64,000 nucleotides of DNA from Promethearchaeia archaeon (GTDB taxonomy: Archaea > Asgardarchaeota > Lokiarchaeia > Sigyniarchaeales > SOKP01). Every line of letters starts with the position of its first letter. The stretch's first letter is position 1. The stretch lies in NCBI GenBank assembly GCA_029856155.1, contig JAHQWL010000093.1:1-64000 (forward strand), written 5' to 3'. Below are positions 17,840 through 64,000 of the stretch, piece by piece. Made by a program: the position numbers and the translations under genes. The notes below the pieces were generated by a model. It saw only the letters and a list, made by a program, of their open reading frames with translations, ran no database searches and was not told the DNA's origin.

Positions 17840-19048
17840 TTATTTTCGCATTTGAATAAATTTACCTGATTTCATTAACTCACATGGGCTTAAATAAGTT
17901 AATCCTGATTTGACTACAAAGTCTTCTAGCAATTGAGTCCATATTTTATAATTTCTTTTTCCTGCCCCGAAAGGTCCCGGGTTATCCATACCAGCCATCA
18001 TTGAATCATCAATTATTTTATACCCGGAAACAATGCCCTCTTCTAAAAGTTTACACCCTTCATTCAATTGAATAGCCATAAAAAGATCGAAATCGAAAAG
18101 CCCAGCTTTAATATCCTTATTTATAATTGGTTGTCCGTCCTTCCATTCAAAAAGTCCTTTCCCATTTTTCCTTCCTAATTGCCCTTCATTTACTAATCGG
18201 GTTAAATTTTTTCCTGGGGCAAATTGAGGGGACAAAACTTCTTCAAAATATTTCATGACATTATAAATAACATCAAGACCTAAATAGTCCCATCTTGCAA
18301 TTGGTCCAATTTCAATCAACTCTTTTGTATCAGCATCTATTTGTTCCAACGGAATATGATTTTCAATTGCAAAATCAAGTAACCAATTCAAATAAGCACT
18401 GGTTGCTATTGTAAGTCGATTCACAATGAAACCAGGACTCTCTTTTTCAAGAACAGGTAAAAATCTCTTTCCTTTTAGCGCAGGAAGTTGTTGACAAACT
18501 TTTTTAGTAATTTCTACTGTATCCTTTGAAGTTTTATCACCCTTAGTAATTTCGATTAATCTGAGTACAACAATTGGAGTAAAAAAATGACATCCAATTA
18601 CTTTATCCGGCCGTCCACTTGAAGAGGCAATTTTCGTGATGCTCATTGTTGATGTATTTGTAGCCAAGATAGTATGTTTAGGGGCTAATTTCCCTAATTT
18701 TTCAAAAAGGTCTTGTTTAAGTTTCATAATCTCTGGTATTGCTTCAACAATGAAATCTGCTTGTGAAACAGCCTTTTTTAGATCTTCTTCTATTATTAGA
18801 TCTTCCATCAGATTAGAAGCTGTTTGGCCCTCCTTTAGCCTTCCTTTAGCTTCTAATCTTTTTAAACCATTTTCAATTCTGTTTACTGCTTTCTCGAGAA
18901 TTTCATTATTTAGATCATTTAGTATTACCGGCTTAAAACCGCCCATTAAAGCAACTTGGGCTATTTCATGACCCATAGTTCCAGCACCAATAACTGCGAT
19001 TAAATTTATATTGTGTATATTACTCATCATTTTAATCCTCATTTCCAT
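17840..19048 (-). CDS. 3-hydroxyacyl-CoA dehydrogenase
   Basis: GAGTMGHEIA, VEAIPE, ATNTSTMSIT, GCHFF, PGFIVNR, GQLGRKNGKG. Confidence 0.92.
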   Translation of the reverse strand: MEMRIKMMSNIHNINLIAVIGAGTMGHEIAQVALMGGFKPVILNDLNNEILEKAVNRIENGLKRLEAKGRLKEGQTASNLMEDLIIEEDLKKAVSQADFIVEAIPEIMKLKQDLFEKLGKLAPKHTILATNTSTMSITKIASSSGRPDKVIGCHFFTPIVVLRLIEITKGDKTSKDTVEITKKVCQQLPALKGKRFLPVLEKESPGFIVNRLTIATSAYLNWLLDFAIENHIPLEQIDADTKELIEIGPIARWDYLGLDVIYNVMKYFEEVLSPQFAPGKNLTRLVNEGQLGRKNGKGLFEWKDGQPIINKDIKAGLFDFDLFMAIQLNEGCKLLEEGIVSGYKIIDDSMMAGMDNPGPFGAGKRNYKIWTQLLEDFVVKSGLTYLSPCELMKSGKFIQMRK

Positions 19049-54495: not shown

Positions 54496-55788
54496 TTATT
54501 TTATAGTCTTAAAAAATCTTCTAGATTCAGCATCTCCTAGCACGTAATGGCTTCCACCACCATGAACCATACAGTATGCGTCAAGAAGTCCCATTTGATT
54601 GCAGTATTGCTCTGTGAAACCACGTCCTCCCATAGTTCTAAATAAATCAATGGAACTCTGAAATGCCAATTCACAAGTTTGAATTTTTAATCCCATTACC
54701 TGAGAAGCCATTATTTTAGAACTAGCTATTTGTGTTCGACTATCAATCTCCCGAGCGTAATTTATTAAAGCTGAAATGAATAAATTTGTTTGACGCATAT
54801 TTTCAGCAATTGGAAATCTTATAATCTGATATTCATGTAATTTATGCTTGAATTGTTCGCGTTGAAGGGCAAAACTATGGGAGAAGAATAGTTTTTTAAT
54901 GCAATCACCTATAGCTTCTGCACTGATAACTAATCTCTCTTCAGTTAATTGATGAAACATAATATCTAGACCATCCCCTTCGAGAAGATTTTCTTTTGGA
55001 ATTTCAACATCATTAAAGACTAATCGACTTACAAAAGCATCTCTCATTCCATACATTCTTGCTCTTGAAGATTCAAAATTATTCAAGTGTTGATGTTCTG
55101 TATCTACTATTATACCACCTAATCTTCCGCTATTTAACCTGCCATAAACAATAATATTATCTGCTAACATGCCATTAACAATAAAAAGTTTTTTTCCCTT
55201 TGCAATTACTTTATCTCCTTTATCATCGAGTTTTAATTCAATTCTTACAATATCACTACCAGCATTAAATTCTGTCATAGCAGAAGCGGCCATCAAACCA
55301 TATTTTACTACAGGGATAAGGTATTTCTCTCTTTGAAAATCATTGGCTTTATAATTCACTGGATTGCAATAAAGCGTTCCTCCTGCTAATCTGCCCATTT
55401 CAATACTCCAATTCCCACTGACATATCTATCACTATTTGAAGACCAAAAACCTCCACATAAGGCTAATGCAATAAGAGCGTTTCGTGTAACATTTCCAAC
55501 TTCATGTTCTTCCAAATCTATTACAGTGCTATAGTAGCCTTTTTCAGCCAATTTTTTCATAAAATTAGATACTATTTCACGTTTCTTTTCTTGAATTGGT
55601 TCCTCAGCCGAATAATTTAACTCTTCTAAGGTTTTCAAATGTTTTTCAAGATTTTCTTCTATATATTCAAAAAATTCAGCTAAAAATTCCTTTTCTTTTA
55701 CATTGAGTATTGGGTTATTTAATAAATCCAATTCAGGAATATTTCGACTTATTTCTATTTTTGGTAATTCCGGGAGTCTTGTATCCAT
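54496..55788 (-). CDS. Acyl-CoA dehydrogenase
   Basis: AMTEFNAGSD, GKKLFIVNG, LTEERL, REQF, MGGRGF. Confidence 0.88.
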   Translation of the reverse strand: MDTRLPELPKIEISRNIPELDLLNNPILNVKEKEFLAEFFEYIEENLEKHLKTLEELNYSAEEPIQEKKREIVSNFMKKLAEKGYYSTVIDLEEHEVGNVTRNALIALALCGGFWSSNSDRYVSGNWSIEMGRLAGGTLYCNPVNYKANDFQREKYLIPVVKYGLMAASAMTEFNAGSDIVRIELKLDDKGDKVIAKGKKLFIVNGMLADNIIVYGRLNSGRLGGIIVDTEHQHLNNFESSRARMYGMRDAFVSRLVFNDVEIPKENLLEGDGLDIMFHQLTEERLVISAEAIGDCIKKLFFSHSFALQREQFKHKLHEYQIIRFPIAENMRQTNLFISALINYAREIDSRTQIASSKIMASQVMGLKIQTCELAFQSSIDLFRTMGGRGFTEQYCNQMGLLDAYCMVHGGGSHYVLGDAESRRFFKTIK

Positions 55789-55980
55789 AATATATAAGAC
55801 AATTTTCTTATGATTTTAAATTTTCTTCTCCATCAAATAGGATTTTATTCCCATCAATGTAAGTAAGTCTATTAGTAATCTTTTAATCAAAACAAAACAT
55901 AACAATAAAATATTAAATCTATTTGAAAATAAGATTTTTAAAAATTAAATTGATATATAATACCTAAAAGTGAAGATATA

Positions 55981-57402
55981 ATGATTAAATTTAGTGATAA
56001 ACAATTAAAAATACCTAAATTACTGCGACCAGTCTACTTAGCTACAGTTGGAATGTCAAAATTCGATCGTGCTTTTCCTGAAACGAGGACGGAAGAATTA
56101 TGTATTCAAGCTTTAACAGCTGCTTCAGATTTTGTTAATATGACGCCAGCAGAATTAAAAAGTTTCATTCATACTGCTTATTATGGTCATTTTGCCGATC
56201 ATTTTGGTGATCAATTACTTGGAGAGGCTGTGATTCATGATAGACTCGGACTTGATCCTTTAGGAACTATTGGTATCAAGACGGGGGGCGCAACAGGTGG
56301 ATCAACAATGTGGGAAGCAATTAAAGCCGTTGCTTCAGGATATAGTGATTGTGCTTTAGCCTTAGGATGGGAGCGAATGGATGAAGTGCCTACTGATGAA
56401 GGTAATCATCTTATATCATGTGCTGCAGATAAAGATTGGGAAACTCCCCTGGGACATATATATACTGGTTATTATGCTGTTATGGCTCAAAGATATTGGC
56501 AAATTTTTGGGAAAGCTGAAGATTCTTTTAGGAAAACAATGGCAGAAATTGCTGTTAAAAACCGAGGCTATGCCAGAATGAATCCTCATGCCCATGGCCC
56601 CATGGAGATCACTGTGGAGGATGTAATTAACTCTCCTGTTATAGCATATCCTCTTCGCGTTTTAGATTGTTGTTTGATGAGCGTGGGCGCAGCATGTGGA
56701 ATTGTATGTGATGAAAAAACAGCCTATGAAATAACGGACAACCCACTTCGGATCTGGATAGGTGCGGGGAGCCATACACTCAGAGTTGCGGATCGTCGTG
56801 ATATGAAGATCCCACTTTTACCAAATGAGGAATCAGGGCAATATGATGATTTAGGTAAAAAATTTCCAGGAGGAGATAGATATCCCGGATTTAGCAGCTT
56901 CTTAGCTGCTCGAATTGCTGCGTATTATGCGTATAATATGACGGGTGTTGTAGACCCCAGCGAAGATTTAGATGTTGTAGAGCTTCATGATGCTTTTACA
57001 ATTAGTGATATTCAAACCTACGAAGATATTGGAATTCGACCGTATGGGGAAGGCAGGGATTATATTGAGTCTGGAGATGCGTATGTGATTAATCCAAATA
57101 CCAATAAACCTGGAAAATTACCTAGCAATCCCTGTGGTGGCTTAATAGGGTGTATGCATGCAGTAGGAGCTACAGGATTAATGCAAATTGCGGAGATAGC
57201 TTACCATATTTGGAACAGATGGGATGAAATCCATGAACCTGAGGAAAAGTGGAAAGAATTTAGTCGAGAAAAACCAAAAGATTGGACTAGCTTACAGGTC
57301 AAAGGAGCTAAACGAGGGTTAGCCATCAGTCATGCGGGCGTCGGCTCTCATGTAACTTGTACAATAATAATGCATCCAAATCATTTAATAAAGGAGGATT
57401 AA
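55981..57402 (+). CDS. Thiolase-fold (SCPx-type) protein lacking the nucleophilic Cys
   Basis: GIKTGGATGG at the usual xACxSG position, AVKNR, ELHDAF, NPCGG, HAVGATG. Confidence 0.85.
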   Translation: MIKFSDKQLKIPKLLRPVYLATVGMSKFDRAFPETRTEELCIQALTAASDFVNMTPAELKSFIHTAYYGHFADHFGDQLLGEAVIHDRLGLDPLGTIGIKTGGATGGSTMWEAIKAVASGYSDCALALGWERMDEVPTDEGNHLISCAADKDWETPLGHIYTGYYAVMAQRYWQIFGKAEDSFRKTMAEIAVKNRGYARMNPHAHGPMEITVEDVINSPVIAYPLRVLDCCLMSVGAACGIVCDEKTAYEITDNPLRIWIGAGSHTLRVADRRDMKIPLLPNEESGQYDDLGKKFPGGDRYPGFSSFLAARIAAYYAYNMTGVVDPSEDLDVVELHDAFTISDIQTYEDIGIRPYGEGRDYIESGDAYVINPNTNKPGKLPSNPCGGLIGCMHAVGATGLMQIAEIAYHIWNRWDEIHEPEEKWKEFSREKPKDWTSLQVKGAKRGLAISHAGVGSHVTCTIIMHPNHLIKED

Positions 57403-57406
57403 AAAA

Positions 57407-58009
57407 ATGCCAAAAACAGAAGATGAAAAAGGCTTTGTAGATATAGTAAATGGAAGGTATAAAGTGAGAGGTAAATTTCACATCATTGAAAGAAATCAAC
57501 CTATCTTTAATAAGGATACAGGAAAATTAGCAGGTGTCACTAATCCCAGAGATATGACATATATACACTCATATGGAGGAGAAGGTATATTTTTCGAATC
57601 TCTTGGCAAAGGAAAACTAATGGCTACAAGATGTGATAACGATAAATGTGAAACAAAAGGTTCTATTTATGAACCATTTCGAATCTATTGCCCAGATTGC
57701 TTAAGAAAAAATACTGTTGTAGATATTACTGAAAAAGCTCAAAAAACAGCAAAAATACACTCTTTTATTATTACTCATCGTTCTGGAGCTTTTAATACGC
57801 TTCCAAAACCAATCAAGTTCATAAACATTGAATTTGATGAAGAAGTAGTCACTATTCTTATGAGCGTGTTAGTTGTCGGAGAACCAGAAATAGGAAAAAG
57901 AGTTATACCAATCTTTCGTACCAAGGATCCAACCTATACCATTATGGATTTAATGTTTGTTGTTGAAGGTACAAAAGCGTCAGAACTTCCAGAGGGCTTT
58001 ACATTTTAA
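57407..58009 (+). CDS. DUF35 zinc-ribbon/OB-fold protein
   Basis: FFESL..GKLMATRC...C...YCPDC, IGKRVIPIF; 4 bp after the thiolase-fold gene. Confidence 0.82.
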   Translation: MPKTEDEKGFVDIVNGRYKVRGKFHIIERNQPIFNKDTGKLAGVTNPRDMTYIHSYGGEGIFFESLGKGKLMATRCDNDKCETKGSIYEPFRIYCPDCLRKNTVVDITEKAQKTAKIHSFIITHRSGAFNTLPKPIKFINIEFDEEVVTILMSVLVVGEPEIGKRVIPIFRTKDPTYTIMDLMFVVEGTKASELPEGFTF

Positions 58010-58110
58010 TCCTATTTTAAAATTATTTTTTTTATTCTTATTATTAATAATTTCAAATTTAAAATTAAAAAGATAAAAAAAATTATAAAATAAAATATTG
58101 AGGAGTCTAT

Positions 58111-59004
58111 TTACTGCTGATATAAATTAAAAATTACTCTGGCCTCATCAGGAGTCGCAGGCTCACGATTTACAATTCTAGCAACTTTAACTGCCCATTC
58201 TACCTGTTCCCAACTTCCTTTGGCTAACCTACCATCAGGCATGCGAATATTATCTTCTAATCCAACCCTAATATGTCCTCCCATAGGTGCTGCACACATT
58301 GCTGCTTGGAATTGTTGTTTTGATACACCACAAACACTCCAACTAGCATCTGGTGGTTTTAGATTCATGAAATGAGCTAAATTTTCATAGGAGAATGGAA
58401 CCCCACCCAAAACTCCGAATACAAATTGAAAGTGAAGAGGAAAATCAAGAATCCGTTTAGGTTCTTGTTTTGCAAGATGAAGCATGTTGTACATACCACC
58501 AAAATCATAAATCTCAATTTCAGGTTTAACTTGTGCCTTTTTCATAGCTTTAGCAAATTTTTGAATGGTGTCAAAATCATTTGCAAAAATAAATTTAGCA
58601 CCGAGTCCGACTTGTCCAGTTTTATGGTCACCTACAGCAAAATTCATTGAGTTAGAATTTAATGAAGCTATTGGAGGTTTAAATGTCACAACAGGAGTGA
58701 TCCTGTCTTTAGGAGTTACAATTGTACTAATGGCCGTACTTAGATTAATTAAAATATCAGGAGCTTTTTCTTTGATATTATCAATTGCAGCTTTGATTAT
58801 ATCTAAATCTGCTACTGGATTACCTTTTTCTGGATGTCTAACATGAATATGGACTATTGCTGCTCCTGCTTCATAACATTTTTTTGCTTCATCGCCAAAC
58901 TCATCAGCAGTATAGGGAACTGCGGGATTCTGGTTTTTATTTGTTGCGGCACCTGTAAGAGCAGCACTTATTACTAACTTATCTGATAAATCTTCTTCTG
59001 AAAT
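58111..59004 (-). CDS. Beta-keto acid cleavage enzyme (BKACE/DUF849, Kce-like)
   Basis: AALTGA, NPAVPYT, GAAIVHIHVR, KPEIEIYD, GGHIRVGLEDN; start either GTG 59013 or ATT 59004. Confidence 0.92.
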   Translation of the reverse strand: MSEEDLSDKLVISAALTGAATNKNQNPAVPYTADEFGDEAKKCYEAGAAIVHIHVRHPEKGNPVADLDIIKAAIDNIKEKAPDILINLSTAISTIVTPKDRITPVVTFKPPIASLNSNSMNFAVGDHKTGQVGLGAKFIFANDFDTIQKFAKAMKKAQVKPEIEIYDFGGMYNMLHLAKQEPKRILDFPLHFQFVFGVLGGVPFSYENLAHFMNLKPPDASWSVCGVSKQQFQAAMCAAPMGGHIRVGLEDNIRMPDGRLAKGSWEQVEWAVKVARIVNREPATPDEARVIFNLYQQ

Positions 59005-59231
59005 TATTATCACTTTTTAAAATTTCTTTTATAGTTTTTAAACTTAGATTACTATTGAAAATAGATATCATTCAAATTAATATGTTTTATCTTCATATTA
59101 AAATTTATTTAGAAATGTTAAATAAATCCTCAATGAAATTCGATAAATATTGTAAAATTTATAAAAGAAAAAATATATTTTTGCTTGTTTAAATCAATAA
59201 TTACTTGTTTTACAAAAATGAGGAAATAAAT

Positions 59232-60782
59232 ATGAATCTAAGAGAATTAGTTAAAACTCAAGCAGAAAAGTATAAGGATAAACCTTTTCTATATTGGGAT
59301 GATATAACAGTCTCCTATGCTCAGTTGGATGAATTGACAAATAAGGTAGCGAATTTTTTATACGATTTAGGTATAAGAAAAGGAGATAAAGTAAGTGTTT
59401 ATTTGCCAAATATGCCTCAATTCGTGTATTTATATTTAGGGATTCCTAAGATAGGAGCAATTACTGGACCTGTAAATGCGTTATTTAAACCTAGAGAAGT
59501 TAAATTCGTAGTTGGTCATTCAGAAGCTAAAGCCATAGTAACTATTCCACAATTCTTGGAAATAATCAACCAAATAAAAGGAGAGCTTCCCAATTTAAAA
59601 CATATAATCGTAATTGGCGAGCCTGTAGAAGGAACCTTAAATTTTAACGAATTAATGGAAAAAACATCATCAGATGCACCTCCTGAAGTGGAAATAGATG
59701 AAAAAGAAGATCCTGCAGCAATACTTTATACGTCAGGTACCACTGGTTTTCCTAAAGGTGTATTACAGACCCATTATAATATTAGACGAAATGCTGAAAT
59801 GATAAAAGATTTCATGGACGCTAAGGAACATTATCGATTTATGCTAATTTTACCATTATTCCATGTTAATGCCCAAATAGTTACTATTATGGGTCCACTT
59901 ACAATAGGAGCGAGTTGTATTTTAACTCGTGGATTTTCAGCTAAAACTCATTGGGAAACTGTTGCAAAATACAAAGCATCTACTTTTAGTTGTGTTCCAA
60001 CAGTACTTTCTGTTTTACTCAAGATGCCACATGAAAATCTTGATCTATCATCATTAGAATTTGTCATATGTGGAGCGGCTCCTTTACCTGTAGAGGTGTT
60101 TAAAGCATTTGAAGAGAAATTTGATTGCAAAGTAATTGAGGGTTATGGTCTCACAGAAGGTACTTGTGCTTCTTCGGTTAATCCTTTACCAACAGAAACA
60201 GAAGACCGACGGAAAATAGGTAGCATCGGTTTAGCTTTACCAGGTAATGAAATGAAAATTGTGGATAGTCAAGGCAATGATCTTCCACCGAATACAAAAG
60301 GTGAAATTGTTATTAGAGGCGATAACATTATGAAAGAATATTTCAAAAACCCTGAGGCAAACGCTGAAACTCTTAAAGGCGATTGGTTGTATACAGGAGA
60401 TATTGGCCACATGGATGAGGATGGCTTTTTCTACATAACTGATCGCAAAAAAGACATGATAATCCGAGGAGGAGAAAATATATATCCACGTGAAATAGAG
60501 GAGGTACTATATTCACATCCAGCAGTTTCTCTGGGAACAGTTATAGGTGTACGGGATGAAATCTATGGAGAACTTCCTAAAGCATTTATTGTATTGAAAG
60601 AAGGTCAATCTGCTACAGAGGAAGAGATTATTGAATATTGTAAAAAACATCTAGCTGACTTTAAAGTTCCAAAATATGTGGAATTTCGGGACAGTCTGCC
60701 TCAAACTCCTACAGGAAAAATAATGAAACAACCCCTTCGTGAAGAGGAGGAAGCTAAAACTGGTAGAGTCTTTGCTACTTAA
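59232..60782 (+). CDS. Long-chain acyl-CoA ligase (ANL family)
   Basis: YTSGTTGFPKG, EGYGLTEG, YTGD, RKKDMIIRGGENIYP, PQTPTGK; ATG at 59232 after GAGG. Confidence 0.92.
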   Translation: MNLRELVKTQAEKYKDKPFLYWDDITVSYAQLDELTNKVANFLYDLGIRKGDKVSVYLPNMPQFVYLYLGIPKIGAITGPVNALFKPREVKFVVGHSEAKAIVTIPQFLEIINQIKGELPNLKHIIVIGEPVEGTLNFNELMEKTSSDAPPEVEIDEKEDPAAILYTSGTTGFPKGVLQTHYNIRRNAEMIKDFMDAKEHYRFMLILPLFHVNAQIVTIMGPLTIGASCILTRGFSAKTHWETVAKYKASTFSCVPTVLSVLLKMPHENLDLSSLEFVICGAAPLPVEVFKAFEEKFDCKVIEGYGLTEGTCASSVNPLPTETEDRRKIGSIGLALPGNEMKIVDSQGNDLPPNTKGEIVIRGDNIMKEYFKNPEANAETLKGDWLYTGDIGHMDEDGFFYITDRKKDMIIRGGENIYPREIEEVLYSHPAVSLGTVIGVRDEIYGELPKAFIVLKEGQSATEEEIIEYCKKHLADFKVPKYVEFRDSLPQTPTGKIMKQPLREEEEAKTGRVFAT

Positions 60783-60941
60783 TTTTTATTAATTTTCCAA
60801 TTTCATTTTCTTTTTTTATAATGATTTTTCTAAAATAGCCTCATACTTATTTTTTTTCAAATTTTAAATTTCAAAAGATTTTTTAGATGATACAATCAAT
60901 ATTATAATAATTTCTAATAATATTAAAAGAGAAAAGTAAAA

Positions 60942-62084
60942 ATGGATAAAGTAGCAATAGTTGGATGTTCTCAAACAAAATATGAAGCAGAAAAAATTGA
61001 TTTAACAATTTCAGAACTGGTTTTTGAAGTTGTTAAGAAGCTACATAACGAATTGGGAATTACAAATGATGATGTTGGTTGTGTAATTACCGGTTCTAAT
61101 GATTTTAATGATGGAAGAACAATAGCAAATATGGCGATTCAAGATGCGGTTGGGTCAGTTAGAAAAGCAGAATCTCGAGTTTCTGGAGATGGAGCATTTG
61201 CTTATGTGTATGGGGCTATGAGGGTTCTTTCTGGAGAATATGATACTGTTTTGGTTGTTTCACACTCTAAATGTTCAGAAGGTGATCAATATCTTATAAA
61301 TAATTCAATATTTGATCCATTTTATCAACGACATTTAGGTTTAGATCAAATATCTTCTGCTGGTTTAATGGCAAATATGTACATGAGTAAATATGGCATT
61401 AATGAAGAACAAGCTGCAGAAGTAGTGGTAAAAAATCGAAAAAATGCTATTAAAAATCCCTATGCACACCTGCAAAATGAAGTTTCAATTGATGAAGTTT
61501 TGAATTCGCCTATGATGGCATATCCCTTAAAAGAATTAGATTTTCCTCCATATAGTGATGGAGCAGTTGCAATGCTTCTCACTAATGAAGAAAATGCTAG
61601 GAAGTTTACTGATACGCCTGTATGGTTAAAAGGATATGCTAGTTGTACTGATGCTTATTATCTTGGACATCGAAATATGACTGATTTAATAGGTTTGGAG
61701 CTTGCTGCAAAAGAAGCTTTTAAAATGGCTGAAATTAATAATCCAATAAAAGAACTAGATGTAGCAGAAGTTTTTGAAGCTTTTTCTGTGCATGAGCTTA
61801 TGATTTATGAAGCTTTAGGATTCTGTGGAAAAGGAGAGGGTGGAAAATTTATTGAAAATGGAGAAACGCAAATAGATGGATCAATTCCAGTAAATCCATC
61901 CGGAGGAGTATTATCTAGCAATGTTGCAATGGCTAATGGTTTAATTCGAGTATCAGAGATTGCTTTACAATTAATGGATAAAGCAGAAAGACGGCAAATA
62001 TCTGATGCAAAAACAGGATTAGCTTATGGAATGAATGGGATATGCTCACAAGGGAATTGTGTATTAATATTCGGAGGTGAATAA
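60942..62084 (+). CDS. Thiolase-fold protein, Ltp4-like
   Basis: GSNDFNDGR, ESRVSGDG (no Cys), AEVFEAF (no His), NPSGG. Confidence 0.78.
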   Translation: MDKVAIVGCSQTKYEAEKIDLTISELVFEVVKKLHNELGITNDDVGCVITGSNDFNDGRTIANMAIQDAVGSVRKAESRVSGDGAFAYVYGAMRVLSGEYDTVLVVSHSKCSEGDQYLINNSIFDPFYQRHLGLDQISSAGLMANMYMSKYGINEEQAAEVVVKNRKNAIKNPYAHLQNEVSIDEVLNSPMMAYPLKELDFPPYSDGAVAMLLTNEENARKFTDTPVWLKGYASCTDAYYLGHRNMTDLIGLELAAKEAFKMAEINNPIKELDVAEVFEAFSVHELMIYEALGFCGKGEGGKFIENGETQIDGSIPVNPSGGVLSSNVAMANGLIRVSEIALQLMDKAERRQISDAKTGLAYGMNGICSQGNCVLIFGGE

Positions 62085-62087
62085 AAG

Positions 62088-63260
62088 ATGCCAAAAAATA
62101 ATGTAGCAATTGTAGGAATAGGGCAAACTAAATTTAGAAGTAAAAGAAGAGATGTGAATATTCCTGAAATGATCTATGAAGCTGTTAAAATGGCGCTTGA
62201 TGATGCTCAAATGGATTATAAAGATATTGATGCAATTCTCATAGGCAATATGGACCATTTTGAGGGCATAAATTTCTCTGAGATGTGGTGTGGGATTGAT
62301 GCCGCGCCAGGATATTTAAAGCCTGTGGTAAAAATTGCTACAGGTGGAACAACAGGTTCGTCTTTAGGTATTTGTGGATATTATAATATTGCTTCTGGGA
62401 TATATAAAAATGTATTAATTGTAGGATGGGAAAAGCTTAATGAGGGCGGTGCTACTACAGGAATAATTACTGCTTTTGATCCAGTATGGGAGCGTCCTTC
62501 ATTAGCAGGTGCTTTAGGACCCCTCGCTTTAATGGCTAATATTTACGCTGCTAAATATGGAATTACATCAGAACAAGCAGCAAAAGTAACTGTTAAAAAT
62601 AGGAGGAATGCTGCCAATAATCCATTTGCCCACATACAAATGCCTAATATTACTATAGATGATGTGATGAATTCTCAAATGATATCTTATCCATTAAGAT
62701 TACATGATTGTTGCCCTCAAAGTGAAGGCGCTTGTGCTGTTATCTATGCTAATGAAGAAGAAACAAAAAAGATTACAGATAATCCTGCTTGGTTTAAAGG
62801 AGTTTCAACAGCTCATTACTACACATTTGGTTGTGATGATTTGATGTTTGATTTACCCACAGCTACTATAGCGTCCAAGAAGATATATAAAAAGGTAGGG
62901 ATAAAAAATCCAATAAAAGATCTTGACGTTGCTGAGATATATGAGCCTACATCATGGTCAGAGCTAAGTTGGACTGAAGCCTTGGGGTTTTGTGGCAGAG
63001 GAGAAGGAGGTAAGTTATTGGATGAGGGTATAACTCAAATGGATGGAGAATTACCGGTTAATCCCTCTGGAGGTGTGTTAAGTACTAATCCTATTGGGGC
63101 AACAGCATTAGTGCGATTTGCAGAAGCAGCAATTCAAGTTATGGGGAGAGGAGGAAAGCGACAAATCTCTGATGTCGAAACAGCAATGGGAATGGGATTT
63201 GGTGGGTCTCTTTGGACTGAATTAGCAATATTAGGAAGAAATCCAAATCCGTTGAGGTGA
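62088..63260 (+). CDS. Thiolase-fold protein, Ltp3-like putative aldolase
   Basis: GQTKF..KR.DV, DHFEG, TGGTTG (no Cys), WEK, CPQSEGACAV, AEIYEP.SW (Tyr for His), STNPIGAT. Confidence 0.8.
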   Translation: MPKNNVAIVGIGQTKFRSKRRDVNIPEMIYEAVKMALDDAQMDYKDIDAILIGNMDHFEGINFSEMWCGIDAAPGYLKPVVKIATGGTTGSSLGICGYYNIASGIYKNVLIVGWEKLNEGGATTGIITAFDPVWERPSLAGALGPLALMANIYAAKYGITSEQAAKVTVKNRRNAANNPFAHIQMPNITIDDVMNSQMISYPLRLHDCCPQSEGACAVIYANEEETKKITDNPAWFKGVSTAHYYTFGCDDLMFDLPTATIASKKIYKKVGIKNPIKDLDVAEIYEPTSWSELSWTEALGFCGRGEGGKLLDEGITQMDGELPVNPSGGVLSTNPIGATALVRFAEAAIQVMGRGGKRQISDVETAMGMGFGGSLWTELAILGRNPNPLR

Positions 63261-63265
63261 TAGAA

Positions 63266-63742
63266 ATGGGAAAAAAAGAAAAGGAATTTCAGATTAAATG
63301 GAAAACAGATTTACCTTATAGGTATTCCATAGGAAAGTTAGCTGTCAAATATTTTGAAGAACTTAAAAATAAGAAGATTATGGGTTCTAAGTGCCCAAAA
63401 TGTGGTAAAAGATTTATGCCTCCCAGAGCTGTATGCGCTGATTGTCTTGTAGAAATGACTTTGGAAGACATGATAGAACTTTCTCCAAAAGGTACTTTAG
63501 AGGGATTTACAGTGGTCAATTATCCGTTTGTTGACCCTAATACAGGAGGTATGCGTCCATTCCCTTATGGATATGGAATTTTCAAATTAGATGGAGCTGA
63601 TACGTATATGATGCATTTTGTTAATGAAACTGACCACACTAAATTTAAAATTGGACAAAGAGTTGAAGCAGTGTTCAAAGAGAAAACAGAAGGAGATATT
63701 TATGATATCCCATATTTCAAACTTATAAGGGAGGAGGAATAA
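63266..63742 (+). CDS. DUF35 zinc-ribbon/OB-fold protein
   Basis: KCPKCG...PPRAVCADC, GTLEGFTVV, IGQRVEAVF; ATG at 63266 after GAGGTGA. Confidence 0.9.
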   Translation: MGKKEKEFQIKWKTDLPYRYSIGKLAVKYFEELKNKKIMGSKCPKCGKRFMPPRAVCADCLVEMTLEDMIELSPKGTLEGFTVVNYPFVDPNTGGMRPFPYGYGIFKLDGADTYMMHFVNETDHTKFKIGQRVEAVFKEKTEGDIYDIPYFKLIREEE

Positions 63743-63756
63743 TGGAGGGAGAGAAA

Positions 63757-64000
63757 ATGAATGAGGAATTAGAAAAGAAAGTATTTAGAGGAAGAATTAA
63801 AGTACCTTATAAACATACAGCTGGAGCTTATGTTGAAAAGTTCATAACTGAAATCGGAAAAAATAACAAAATAATGGGCGTAAGATGTCCTAAATGTGGA
63901 AAAGTGTTTGTACCTCCAAAAATGATCTGCTTTAAATGCTTCGAGAAGATGGAAGAATGGGTAGAGGTTGGAAATCAAGGAACAGTTAAAGGTTTCACTG
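63757..64000 (+). CDS. Second tandem DUF35 protein (truncated by the window end, not in ORF track)
   Basis: MNEELEKKVFRGRIKVPYKHTAG...MGVRCPKCGKVFVPPKMICFKCFEKMEEWVEVGNQGTVKGFT; alternative ATG at 63742. Confidence 0.88.
   Translation, partial: MNEELEKKVFRGRIKVPYKHTAGAYVEKFITEIGKNNKIMGVRCPKCGKVFVPPKMICFKCFEKMEEWVEVGNQGTVKGFT

Follow-up and report, generated by a model that had tools for sequence, protein, structure and literature searches.

Cys-less thiolase-fold proteins with DUF35 partners in a Promethearchaeia archaeon: relatives of Ltp3/Ltp4 that may form a heteromeric retro-aldol lyase

What reaction, if any, is left to a thiolase-fold protein that has lost its nucleophilic cysteine? 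The question is raised by a locus at positions 54496-64206 of contig JAHQWL010000093.1 (C94, 83.8 kb) in the genome of a Promethearchaeia archaeon (assembly GCA_029856155.1; 4.10 Mb, 30% G+C, 97% complete, 5.7% contaminated). The stretch analyzed, called the window below, is the first 64 kb of this contig. In the locus, three genes encode thiolase-fold proteins: T1 (55981-57402, plus strand, 473 amino acids), T2 (60942-62084, plus strand) and T3 (62088-63260, plus strand). T2 and T3 are followed by genes for two DUF35 proteins, D35a (63257-63742, plus strand) and D35b (63742-64206, plus strand, of which 63742-64000 lies in the window). The first-pass annotation, made from the sequence alone, placed the locus in a probable Asgard archaeon, and this assignment is borne out by homologues of the studied genes with 90-97% identity, which belong to metagenome-assembled genomes labelled Promethearchaeota; near-identical DNA is present in marine-sediment and salt-marsh metagenomes, and among the data sets listed as matching 60800-64000 none is from RNA. 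The open reading frames and domains from 54496 to the window end also match the first description. We propose, with a probability of roughly 0.55, that T2, T3 and the two DUF35 proteins form a heteromeric retro-aldol lyase in which T3 would be the catalytic subunit and T2 its partner.

The catalytic sites of T1, T2 and T3 were located by alignment to the solved thiolases 6esq and 6hsj and to the two canonical SCP2-type thiolases of the same genome. At the site of the nucleophilic cysteine, T1 and T3 have glycine and T2 has a shortened Cys-less loop (RVSGDGA). The HDCF motif reads HDAF in T1, FEAF in T2 and YEPT in T3, and the GHP motif reads MHA, SNV and TNP, respectively. The acid/base cysteine is also absent from all three proteins. 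In T2 and T3, all four thiolase catalytic residues (two Cys and two His) are gone, whereas T1 retains both His. The alignments thus confirm two earlier claims, that all three genes lack the nucleophilic Cys and that two of them also lack the catalytic His.

These residue states are fixed among homologues. Gly87, Tyr285, Asn334, Cys209 and His182 of T3 are each found in 108/108 full-length homologues (119 listed, of which 11 under 380 amino acids were dropped), as are Glu283 and Cys216. The T1 states (G, HDAF and MH[ASG]) are kept in 120/120 homologues, and cysteine occurs in the nucleophile loop of 0/80 of the best T2-type matches, about five of which are T3-type genes. Because the states are fixed in the T1 and T3 homologues and in the T2-type matches, the loss of cysteine is not a matter of chance. 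Conservation of the Tyr site is uneven: it is invariant in T3 and variable in the T2 orthologues, where the 80 best matches have YDAF (35), FEAF (8), or S, T, L or A at the site equivalent to Tyr285. Since the nucleophilic Cys is absent, formation of an acyl-enzyme for thiolysis would be impossible, and T2 and T3, with their catalytic residues lost, are predicted to be incapable of thiolysis by the known mechanism, in agreement with the non-thiolase status first assigned to them. A search of the ESM Atlas returned generic thiolase clusters alone.

The loss is common in this genome. Two of its eight SCP2-type thiolase-fold genes (on contigs C39 and C22) carry the nucleophilic Cys together with HDCF and GHP, and both are paired with DUF35 genes; among the five thiolase/DUF35 units of the genome, three are Cys-less. 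One of these, a second module with the order DUF35-T4-T5-DUF35, lies on the same contig at C94:79162-82582, with a T2-like T4 (FEAA / GNP) and a T3-like T5 (TGGTTG / YSPF / TNA). No DUF35 match lies on the contig of a sixth Cys-less thiolase-fold paralogue (C102:8608-9831, minus strand; P / HDAF / GHP), which groups with canonical thiolases in trees.

The junctions between T2, T3, D35a and D35b indicate a tightly coupled operon, with GGAGG-type motifs. The ATG of T3 lies 3 nt past the T2 stop and is preceded by GGAGGTGA. D35a starts either at GTG 63257 or, more likely, at ATG 63266, which lies 5 nt past the T3 stop and is preceded by GAGGTGA, and D35a and D35b overlap by one base (TAATG). In both D35a and D35b, the zinc ribbon (PF12172) and the OB fold (PF01796) score above the gathering score (38.4 and 41.9 bits, respectively, in D35a, which has a CxxC...CxxC ribbon).

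To what extent is this four-gene unit conserved? Search patterns were taken from an eight-row alignment and species-representative genomes were scanned, which gave at least 600 pattern matches and 544 confirmed relatives; the best 80 were kept, and the neighbour genes in these 80 loci were identified by tblastn with the cluster proteins. By record title, 34 of the best 80 are archaeal and 46 are bacterial. The archaeal loci are mostly labelled Promethearchaeota, with Hermod-, Jord-, Frey- and Odinarchaeota, one 'Thermoplasmata' and one 'Methanobacteriota' also represented, and the bacterial labels include Syntrophaceae, Thermodesulfobacteriota, Acidobacteria, Smithella, Anaerolineae, Nitrospirota and the cultured Desulfatibacillum alkenivorans DSM 16219. 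The T2-type gene lies immediately 5' of the T3-type gene in 77/80 loci, and the other three (L036, L041 and L047) end at a contig edge. Synteny across Asgard genomes had been suggested as a check, and the order T2-T3-DUF35-DUF35 holds in 25/25 of the archaeal loci that are complete on both sides. The 33 complete bacterial loci have the order DUF35-T2-T3-DUF35 (22), T2-T3-DUF35-DUF35 (8) or three DUF35 genes (1), and the remaining two fall beyond the distance limits, one with the DUF35 pair 1.8 kb downstream (L053) and one with a wider T2-T3 gap (L077); by the limits used, two DUF35 genes accompany the T2-T3 pair in 30/33. The T3 proteins of archaea and bacteria are 50-58% identical.

The module is unevenly distributed within the phylum, with a T3 match at E <= 1e-80 in 49 of the 301 sampled genomes, this genome counted; with this genome excluded, such matches occur in 39/68 genomes of its own family, 5/6 of family f21 and 3/3 of family f15, and in none of families f9 (0/76) and f7 (0/28). 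Five f21 genomes (G028, G047, G064, G070 and G088) have six T3-type matches each at the same threshold, a sign that the module has expanded strongly in f21. Four T3 orthologues with 83-86% identity (in genomes G231, G135, G171 and G174) contain one or two in-frame stops (two TAA, or TGA and TAG), which may reflect a short insert or an assembly error.

To which known proteins are T2 and T3 related? Among NCBIfam models, NF006180 (PRK08313) matches T3 best, at 377.4 bits where the cut-off is 514. The same model ranks first for T2 (283 bits), which scores 205.8 bits for NF005924 (PRK07937; cut-off 419). True members score 750.4 (a Nocardia protein) and 704.5 bits (the Streptomyces-type P0140) for NF006180, and 596.2 bits (a Nocardia protein) for NF005924. 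A search of a plasmid collection with a true NF006180 member led to a locus of Nocardia farcinica (NZ_LN868939.1) with a row of genes consisting of a TIGR03559 'F420_Rv3520c' member (508.5 bits), a 340-amino-acid tandem DUF35 protein, both halves of which match DUF35 proteins, an NF005924 member and an NF006180 member; a steroid 3-ketoacyl-CoA thiolase is also encoded in the vicinity, and Streptomyces clavuligerus has the trio of tandem DUF35, NF005924 and NF006180 proteins as well. We take the Nocardia row to be the Rv3520c-Rv3523-type arrangement, after the gene order of Mycobacterium tuberculosis, with the label Rv3520c taken from the name of the TIGR03559 model. This locus beside an Rv3520c-type gene supports NF006180 as the Ltp3 type and NF005924 as the Ltp4 type. 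Although titled 'Nocardia farcinica plasmid 2', the PLSDB record in question has a length of 2.66 Mb, carries sterol-type catabolic genes and looks like part of the chromosome.

The first-pass annotation had likened the gene at 60942 (T2) to Ltp4 and that at 62088 (T3) to Ltp3 on the strength of sequence motifs. These motifs are present in the actual Nocardia proteins: GQT..TKR.DV, FEG, WEK, AEIY.PFSW and NPIGA in the Ltp3-type protein (NfLtp3), and GSSD..GR and ESHVEMD in the Ltp4-type protein (NfLtp4). Our main tree was a careful IQ-TREE run on 50 rows, with a bootstrap that had not fully settled; the Ltp proteins in it are the Ltp3 and Ltp4 types of Nocardia and Streptomyces (ScLtp3 and ScLtp4). 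In this tree, the T2-like and T3-like Cys-less proteins are split from the canonical thiolases, T1 and the C102 paralogue with a support of 100/100. A phylogeny had been suggested as a check; the tree built here separates T2 and T3 from canonical thiolases but leaves T1 among them. T2, T4, NfLtp4 and ScLtp4 form a 16-row clade (100/99). T3, T5, NfLtp3 and ScLtp3 fall in a 13-row group (81/98), though T3 and the Ltp3 types are not sisters there. The T3-like rows as a whole are only weakly monophyletic (57/57), and a quick tree of 86 rows agrees with the 50-row tree. The likeness to Ltp4 and Ltp3 stands for the motifs and for the T2 clade, and with less support for the T3 group, but the scores are under both cut-offs and the archaeal proteins sit on other branches, so that T2 and T3 are relatives, not orthologues, of the actinobacterial proteins. 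Since the archaeal proteins are not sister to the actinobacterial ones, the split between the alpha and beta subunits would predate both.

The archaeal and actinobacterial pairs have several features in common. In both, the paralogous thiolase-fold genes are adjacent, the Ltp4-type gene comes first, both proteins are Cys-less and there are two DUF35 units per pair. In T3 as in NfLtp3, Tyr occupies the HDCF site and Asn the GHP site (TGGTTG / YEPT / TNP in T3; HTAGSVG / YVPF / SNP in NfLtp3), and T2 and NfLtp4 share a shortened xDGx/xDAx nucleophile loop (SGDGA in T2, EMDAA in NfLtp4). Both halves of the actinobacterial tandem DUF35 protein are matched by D35a and also by D35b, but the two lean modestly in opposite directions: the best match of D35a is the C-terminal half (71.6 vs 62.8 bits) and that of D35b is the N-terminal half (88.6 vs 73.2 bits). 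The two systems differ in their DUF35 units, which are fused in one protein in the actinobacteria but encoded by separate genes, each with an intact zinc ribbon, in the archaeon. The archaeal host is anaerobic, with no sterol-catabolic context and no carboxyltransferase found in the genome, and neither the Rv3520c-type F420 oxidoreductase nor the steroid 3-ketoacyl-CoA thiolase of the Nocardia locus is in the archaeal cluster. The module is part of a large, biochemically uncharacterized clade that also includes the Ltp3/Ltp4 of sterol degraders.

What chemistry could such a pair carry out? We propose that the products of 60942-64206 assemble into one thiolase-fold complex, probably still able to bind acyl-CoA, that would consist of T3, T2 and the two different DUF35 proteins, with one DUF35 zinc-ribbon/OB-fold protein for each thiolase-fold subunit. 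T3 would be catalytic, and T2 would be a paralogous partner with a degenerate site under relaxed constraint. The substrate would most likely be a 3-hydroxyacyl-CoA made by the neighbouring acyl-CoA dehydrogenases (ACADs) and crotonase-type hydratases, and its split in the retro-aldol direction would yield acetyl- or propionyl-CoA and an aldehyde or a ketone. Tyr285 of T3 would act as the base on the beta-hydroxyl, by comparison with Tyr294 of Ltp2 and Tyr302 of Sal. The acyl-CoA ligases, the aldehyde:ferredoxin oxidoreductase (AOR), the Fe-alcohol dehydrogenase and the beta-keto acid cleavage enzyme (BKACE) of the cluster may feed substrates to the complex or recycle its carbonyl product.

The proposal draws on the steroid aldolases. 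According to the relevant passages of PMC12329534, these enzymes replace HDCF by YDHF in Ltp2 and YDCY in Sal, the first Tyr of which is the catalytic base; glycine stands at the position of the thiolase nucleophile, and Tyr344 (Ltp2) or Cys304 (Sal) serves as the second catalyst. In our alignments, Tyr285 of T3 falls on the His of HDCF, i.e. the catalytic Tyr site of the aldolases, and Gly87 on the nucleophile site; T2 has Phe278 at the Tyr site. Ltp2-ChsH2 and Sal-Shy share with the archaeal module a thiolase fold, Gly in place of the nucleophilic Cys, Tyr as the first residue of the HDCF equivalent and a DUF35 partner. They differ in being homodimers bound to a DUF35-MaoC hydratase fusion, whereas the archaeal module has separate DUF35 proteins, hydratases of the crotonase type and, as proposed, two different thiolase-fold subunits in one complex. 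The cluster gives further support: it holds two ACADs, two hydratases, two ligases, an AOR and an alcohol dehydrogenase, yet among the five 3-hydroxyacyl-CoA dehydrogenase family matches over the cut-off in the genome none lies inside the cluster (54.5-82.6 kb). The earlier proposal of non-thiolytic carbon-carbon cleavage is supported in part, for T2 and T3, by residue loss and Ltp kinship; T1 is of a different class, and a sterol or hopanoid link finds no support.

Several observations weigh against a retro-aldol lyase. T3 has no counterpart of the second catalytic residue: Cys304 of Sal corresponds to Pro287, and Tyr344 of Ltp2 to Asn334; we infer the position of Ltp2 Tyr344 at the GHP-His site from the +50 spacing and from a statement on Gln352 of Sal in an excerpt of PMC12329534. 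In sequence, T3 is no nearer to Ltp2 (6ok1, 99.7 bits) than to true thiolases (6esq, 140.8 bits; 6hsj, 140.6 bits). In the wider T3-like clade, P0131, P0138, P0164, P0181 and P0188 have Gln or Phe at the Tyr site. The T2 proteins of other lineages may themselves be active, since YDAF is present in 35 of the 80 best T2-type matches. With 16 AOR copies in this genome, the nearness of one to the module is weak evidence. Finally, the first-pass annotation called the aldol lyase function of Ltp3/Ltp4 established, which is too strong: in the portions of PMC6678751 and PMC8708139 that deal with it, Ltp3-Ltp4 is termed a 'heteromeric aldol-lyase' with reference to one gene-deletion study. Our literature search turned up no enzymatic assay of a protein from the Ltp3/Ltp4 clades, and the name aldolase derives from genetics and analogy.

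Some of these points would also fit another Cys-independent acyl-CoA reaction, such as decarboxylation of a malonyl-type or beta-keto thioester, hydrolysis, isomerization or a biosynthetic aldol or Claisen-type condensation, an explanation that we regard as unlikely although the best placed of the rivals considered here. Aldol reactions are reversible, T3 is without the known acid catalysts of Ltp2 and Sal, and BKACE, which acts on beta-keto acids, is encoded near the module in 23/34 archaeal loci; in addition, the thiolase-like TbSLP has a weak malonyl-CoA decarboxylase activity, as reported in an extract of PMC12329534. On the other hand, Tyr is found at the aldolase base position in 108/108 T3 homologues, the neighbours (ligases, ACADs, hydratases, AOR and alcohol dehydrogenase) look catabolic, and the nearest named relatives are tied by genetics to side-chain cleavage in the portions of the papers cited above.

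It is also conceivable, but improbable in our view, that T2 and T3 are pseudo-enzymes that act as a scaffold or as an acyl-CoA-binding platform, which would organize hydratases, dehydrogenases or BKACE together with the DUF35 proteins. The loss of all canonical catalytic residues and the drift of the T2 site among orthologues would be expected of such a scaffold, and DUF35/thiolase cores do recruit other enzymes, as described for the core of the Sulfolobus fatty-acid synthase in the corresponding part of 10.1101/2024.07.05.601840. T3 does not behave in this way: its polar residues Tyr285, Asn334, Cys209, His182 and Glu283, at former active-site positions, are kept in all 108 homologues, and with 50-58% identity between archaea and bacteria its constraint exceeds what is expected for a plain scaffold. 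Very improbable, lastly, are cryptic thiolases with another nucleophilic Cys, for which Cys209 or Cys216 of T3 would be invariant candidates, since the Cys209 position is also Cys in 18/28 canonical SCP2-type thiolase rows and is thus ancestral and not a replacement, both His (for nucleophile activation and the oxyanion hole) are missing, and no T2 orthologue among the 80 best matches has Cys in the nucleophile loop.

Two other thiolase-fold systems help to place the retro-aldol proposal. Canonical SCP2-type thiolase/DUF35 pairs resemble the archaeal units in having a thiolase fold and an adjacent small zinc-ribbon/OB DUF35 gene, but they keep Cys, HDCF and GHP and carry out Claisen condensation or thiolysis, which T1-T5 cannot do by that mechanism. 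The best solved-structure match of T2 (E = 5e-49) and T3 (E = 1e-50) is PDB 4YZO, a 'putative acyl-CoA acyltransferase', which likewise has a thiolase fold without the nucleophilic Cys (an NTSGSGG loop) but differs from T2 and T3 in retaining both His (HDMA and GHP), as T1 does. Judging by titles and abstracts, our literature search found no paper on the function of 4YZO.

What would be the substrate? The first-pass annotation held that it cannot be read from the sequence, and we agree, since no gene identifies it. The sterol or hopanoid side chains that it offered as examples find no support: sterol genes are absent from the cluster, and a search of the genome, which is 97% complete, found no PF01039 carboxyltransferase. 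The route for C24-branched sterols includes a carboxylation, according to the pertinent passages of PMC8708139 and PMC6678751. A sitosterol-like route, with branch carboxylation and then the lyase, was therefore considered unlikely. The genome has one Hydantoinase_B gene, on another contig.

We also set aside an aldolase that would replace the dehydrogenase and the thiolase for ordinary fatty acids. The genome has five 3-hydroxyacyl-CoA dehydrogenase matches and four Cys-bearing thiolases elsewhere, and re-activation of an aldehyde through a ligase costs ATP in each cycle.

The SCP2, CrtI-family flavoprotein and enoate reductase genes of the cluster hint weakly at a hydrophobic, perhaps isoprenoid, substrate, and a link of the module to a beta-keto acid through BKACE is possible. 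As a speculation that we consider distinctly unlikely in this specific form, sediment Asgard archaea and syntrophic or sulfate-reducing bacteria might share a thiolase-independent way to shorten chains that resist beta-oxidation, such as the 3-methyl-branched isoprenoid acyl-CoAs of phytol and archaeal lipids. In that case, a tertiary 3-hydroxyacyl-CoA would be cut by the T2/T3/DUF35 lyase to acetyl-CoA and a ketone or an aldehyde, and the carbonyl fragment would re-enter the CoA pool by way of BKACE, AOR and the ligases. SCP2, the CrtI-family flavoprotein and the FadH-like enoate reductase would deal with the chain itself, which is hydrophobic and unsaturated. Many of the Asgard 'ketothiolase/DUF35 pairs' that have been taken for possible genes of fatty-acid synthesis would then encode catabolic lyases.

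The residue states bear on annotation as well. It had been foreseen that standard annotation would miscall these proteins as thiolases, and their public names are indeed acetyl-CoA C-acetyltransferase or thiolase family protein, so that metabolic reconstructions of Asgard archaea count them as thiolases of beta-oxidation or fatty-acid synthesis. According to passages of the preprint 10.1101/2024.07.05.601840, 67% of 62 Asgard genomes carry ketothiolase/DUF35 pairs, 3.8 on average, which is read there as possible fatty-acid synthesis. Given the residue states found here, each such pair needs a residue check before it is read in this way. Judging by titles and abstracts, our literature search returned no description of Cys-less thiolase pairs in archaea or anaerobes. 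The chemistry of the module is open to experiment, since the module is present in the cultured D. alkenivorans DSM 16219.

How does T1 fit into this picture? The first-pass annotation listed it with T2 and T3 among the Cys-less thiolase folds. With both His kept and a position, on a long branch, among the canonical thiolases in the 50-row and the 86-row tree, T1 is a separate class. It is a near miss for NF004982 (PRK06365), with 665.2 bits over the full model (cut-off 695). T1 is unusually well conserved: the 120 best cluster representatives share 75-89% identity with it and carry the labels Promethearchaeota, Thermoplasmata, Planctomycetes, Marinimicrobia, Krumholzibacteria, Cytophagales and Gammaproteobacteria. 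The start of the next gene, D35w (57407-58009, plus strand), lies 4 nt past the T1 stop. D35w encodes an atypical DUF35-like protein with zinc-ribbon Cys and an OB fold; its OB domain alone is matched (Pfam OB_ChsH2_C, E=0.0026, below the gathering score), and it matches the next DUF35 gene by BLASTP with E=4e-7. Because a D35w-type gene stands directly 3' of T1 in 76/80 metagenome loci (the other four end at a contig edge), this weak DUF35-like gene is real. The G+C content of these loci ranges from 0.31 to 0.62, and an ACAD-like gene often adjoins the T1-D35w pair, in most low-GC metagenome loci.

In the window, three further genes surround the thiolase-fold genes. A divergent ACAD-like gene, ACAD1 (54496-55788, minus strand), is divergently placed beside T1; it matches Pfam Acyl-CoA_dh_1 (51.8 bits) and Acyl-CoA_dh_M (35.6 bits), and every NCBIfam match is far under its cut-off. 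The BKACE gene (58111-59013, minus strand) matches PF05853 over model positions 1-274 of 274 with 301.7 bits, above the gathering score, and its best NCBIfam equivalogs are all under cut-off. The acyl-CoA ligase gene (59205-60782, plus strand) scores 334.8 bits for AMP-binding and 537.1 bits (cut-off 476) for NF004837, a long-chain-fatty-acid--CoA ligase subfamily. BKACE has five matches in the genome, and in the fetched flanks of the 80 module loci it is found in 23/34 archaeal and 3/46 bacterial loci.

The cluster spans 28 kb and continues for about 18.6 kb past the window end. This part of the contig encodes a CMD-family protein, a FadH/BaiCD-like Fe-S enoate reductase, a crotonase, the AOR, the Fe-alcohol dehydrogenase, SCP2, a PaaE-like ferredoxin reductase, the CrtI-family flavoprotein (TIGR02734, 149 bits, below cut-off), a second crotonase, a second ligase and a second ACAD. 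The SCP2, PaaE-like ferredoxin reductase and CrtI-family flavoprotein genes (C94:71404-74730) recur beside the module in many Asgard loci. Near the bacterial module, a flavoprotein of PF01593 (Amino_oxidase, the same Pfam family as the CrtI-family protein) is encoded in D. alkenivorans (L069), and a CrtI-family tblastn match is found in L063 and L084, which are Desulfobacterota-type loci. One of the five 3-hydroxyacyl-CoA dehydrogenase genes of the genome lies in the window at 18485-19000 (minus strand), 36 kb upstream and outside the cluster.

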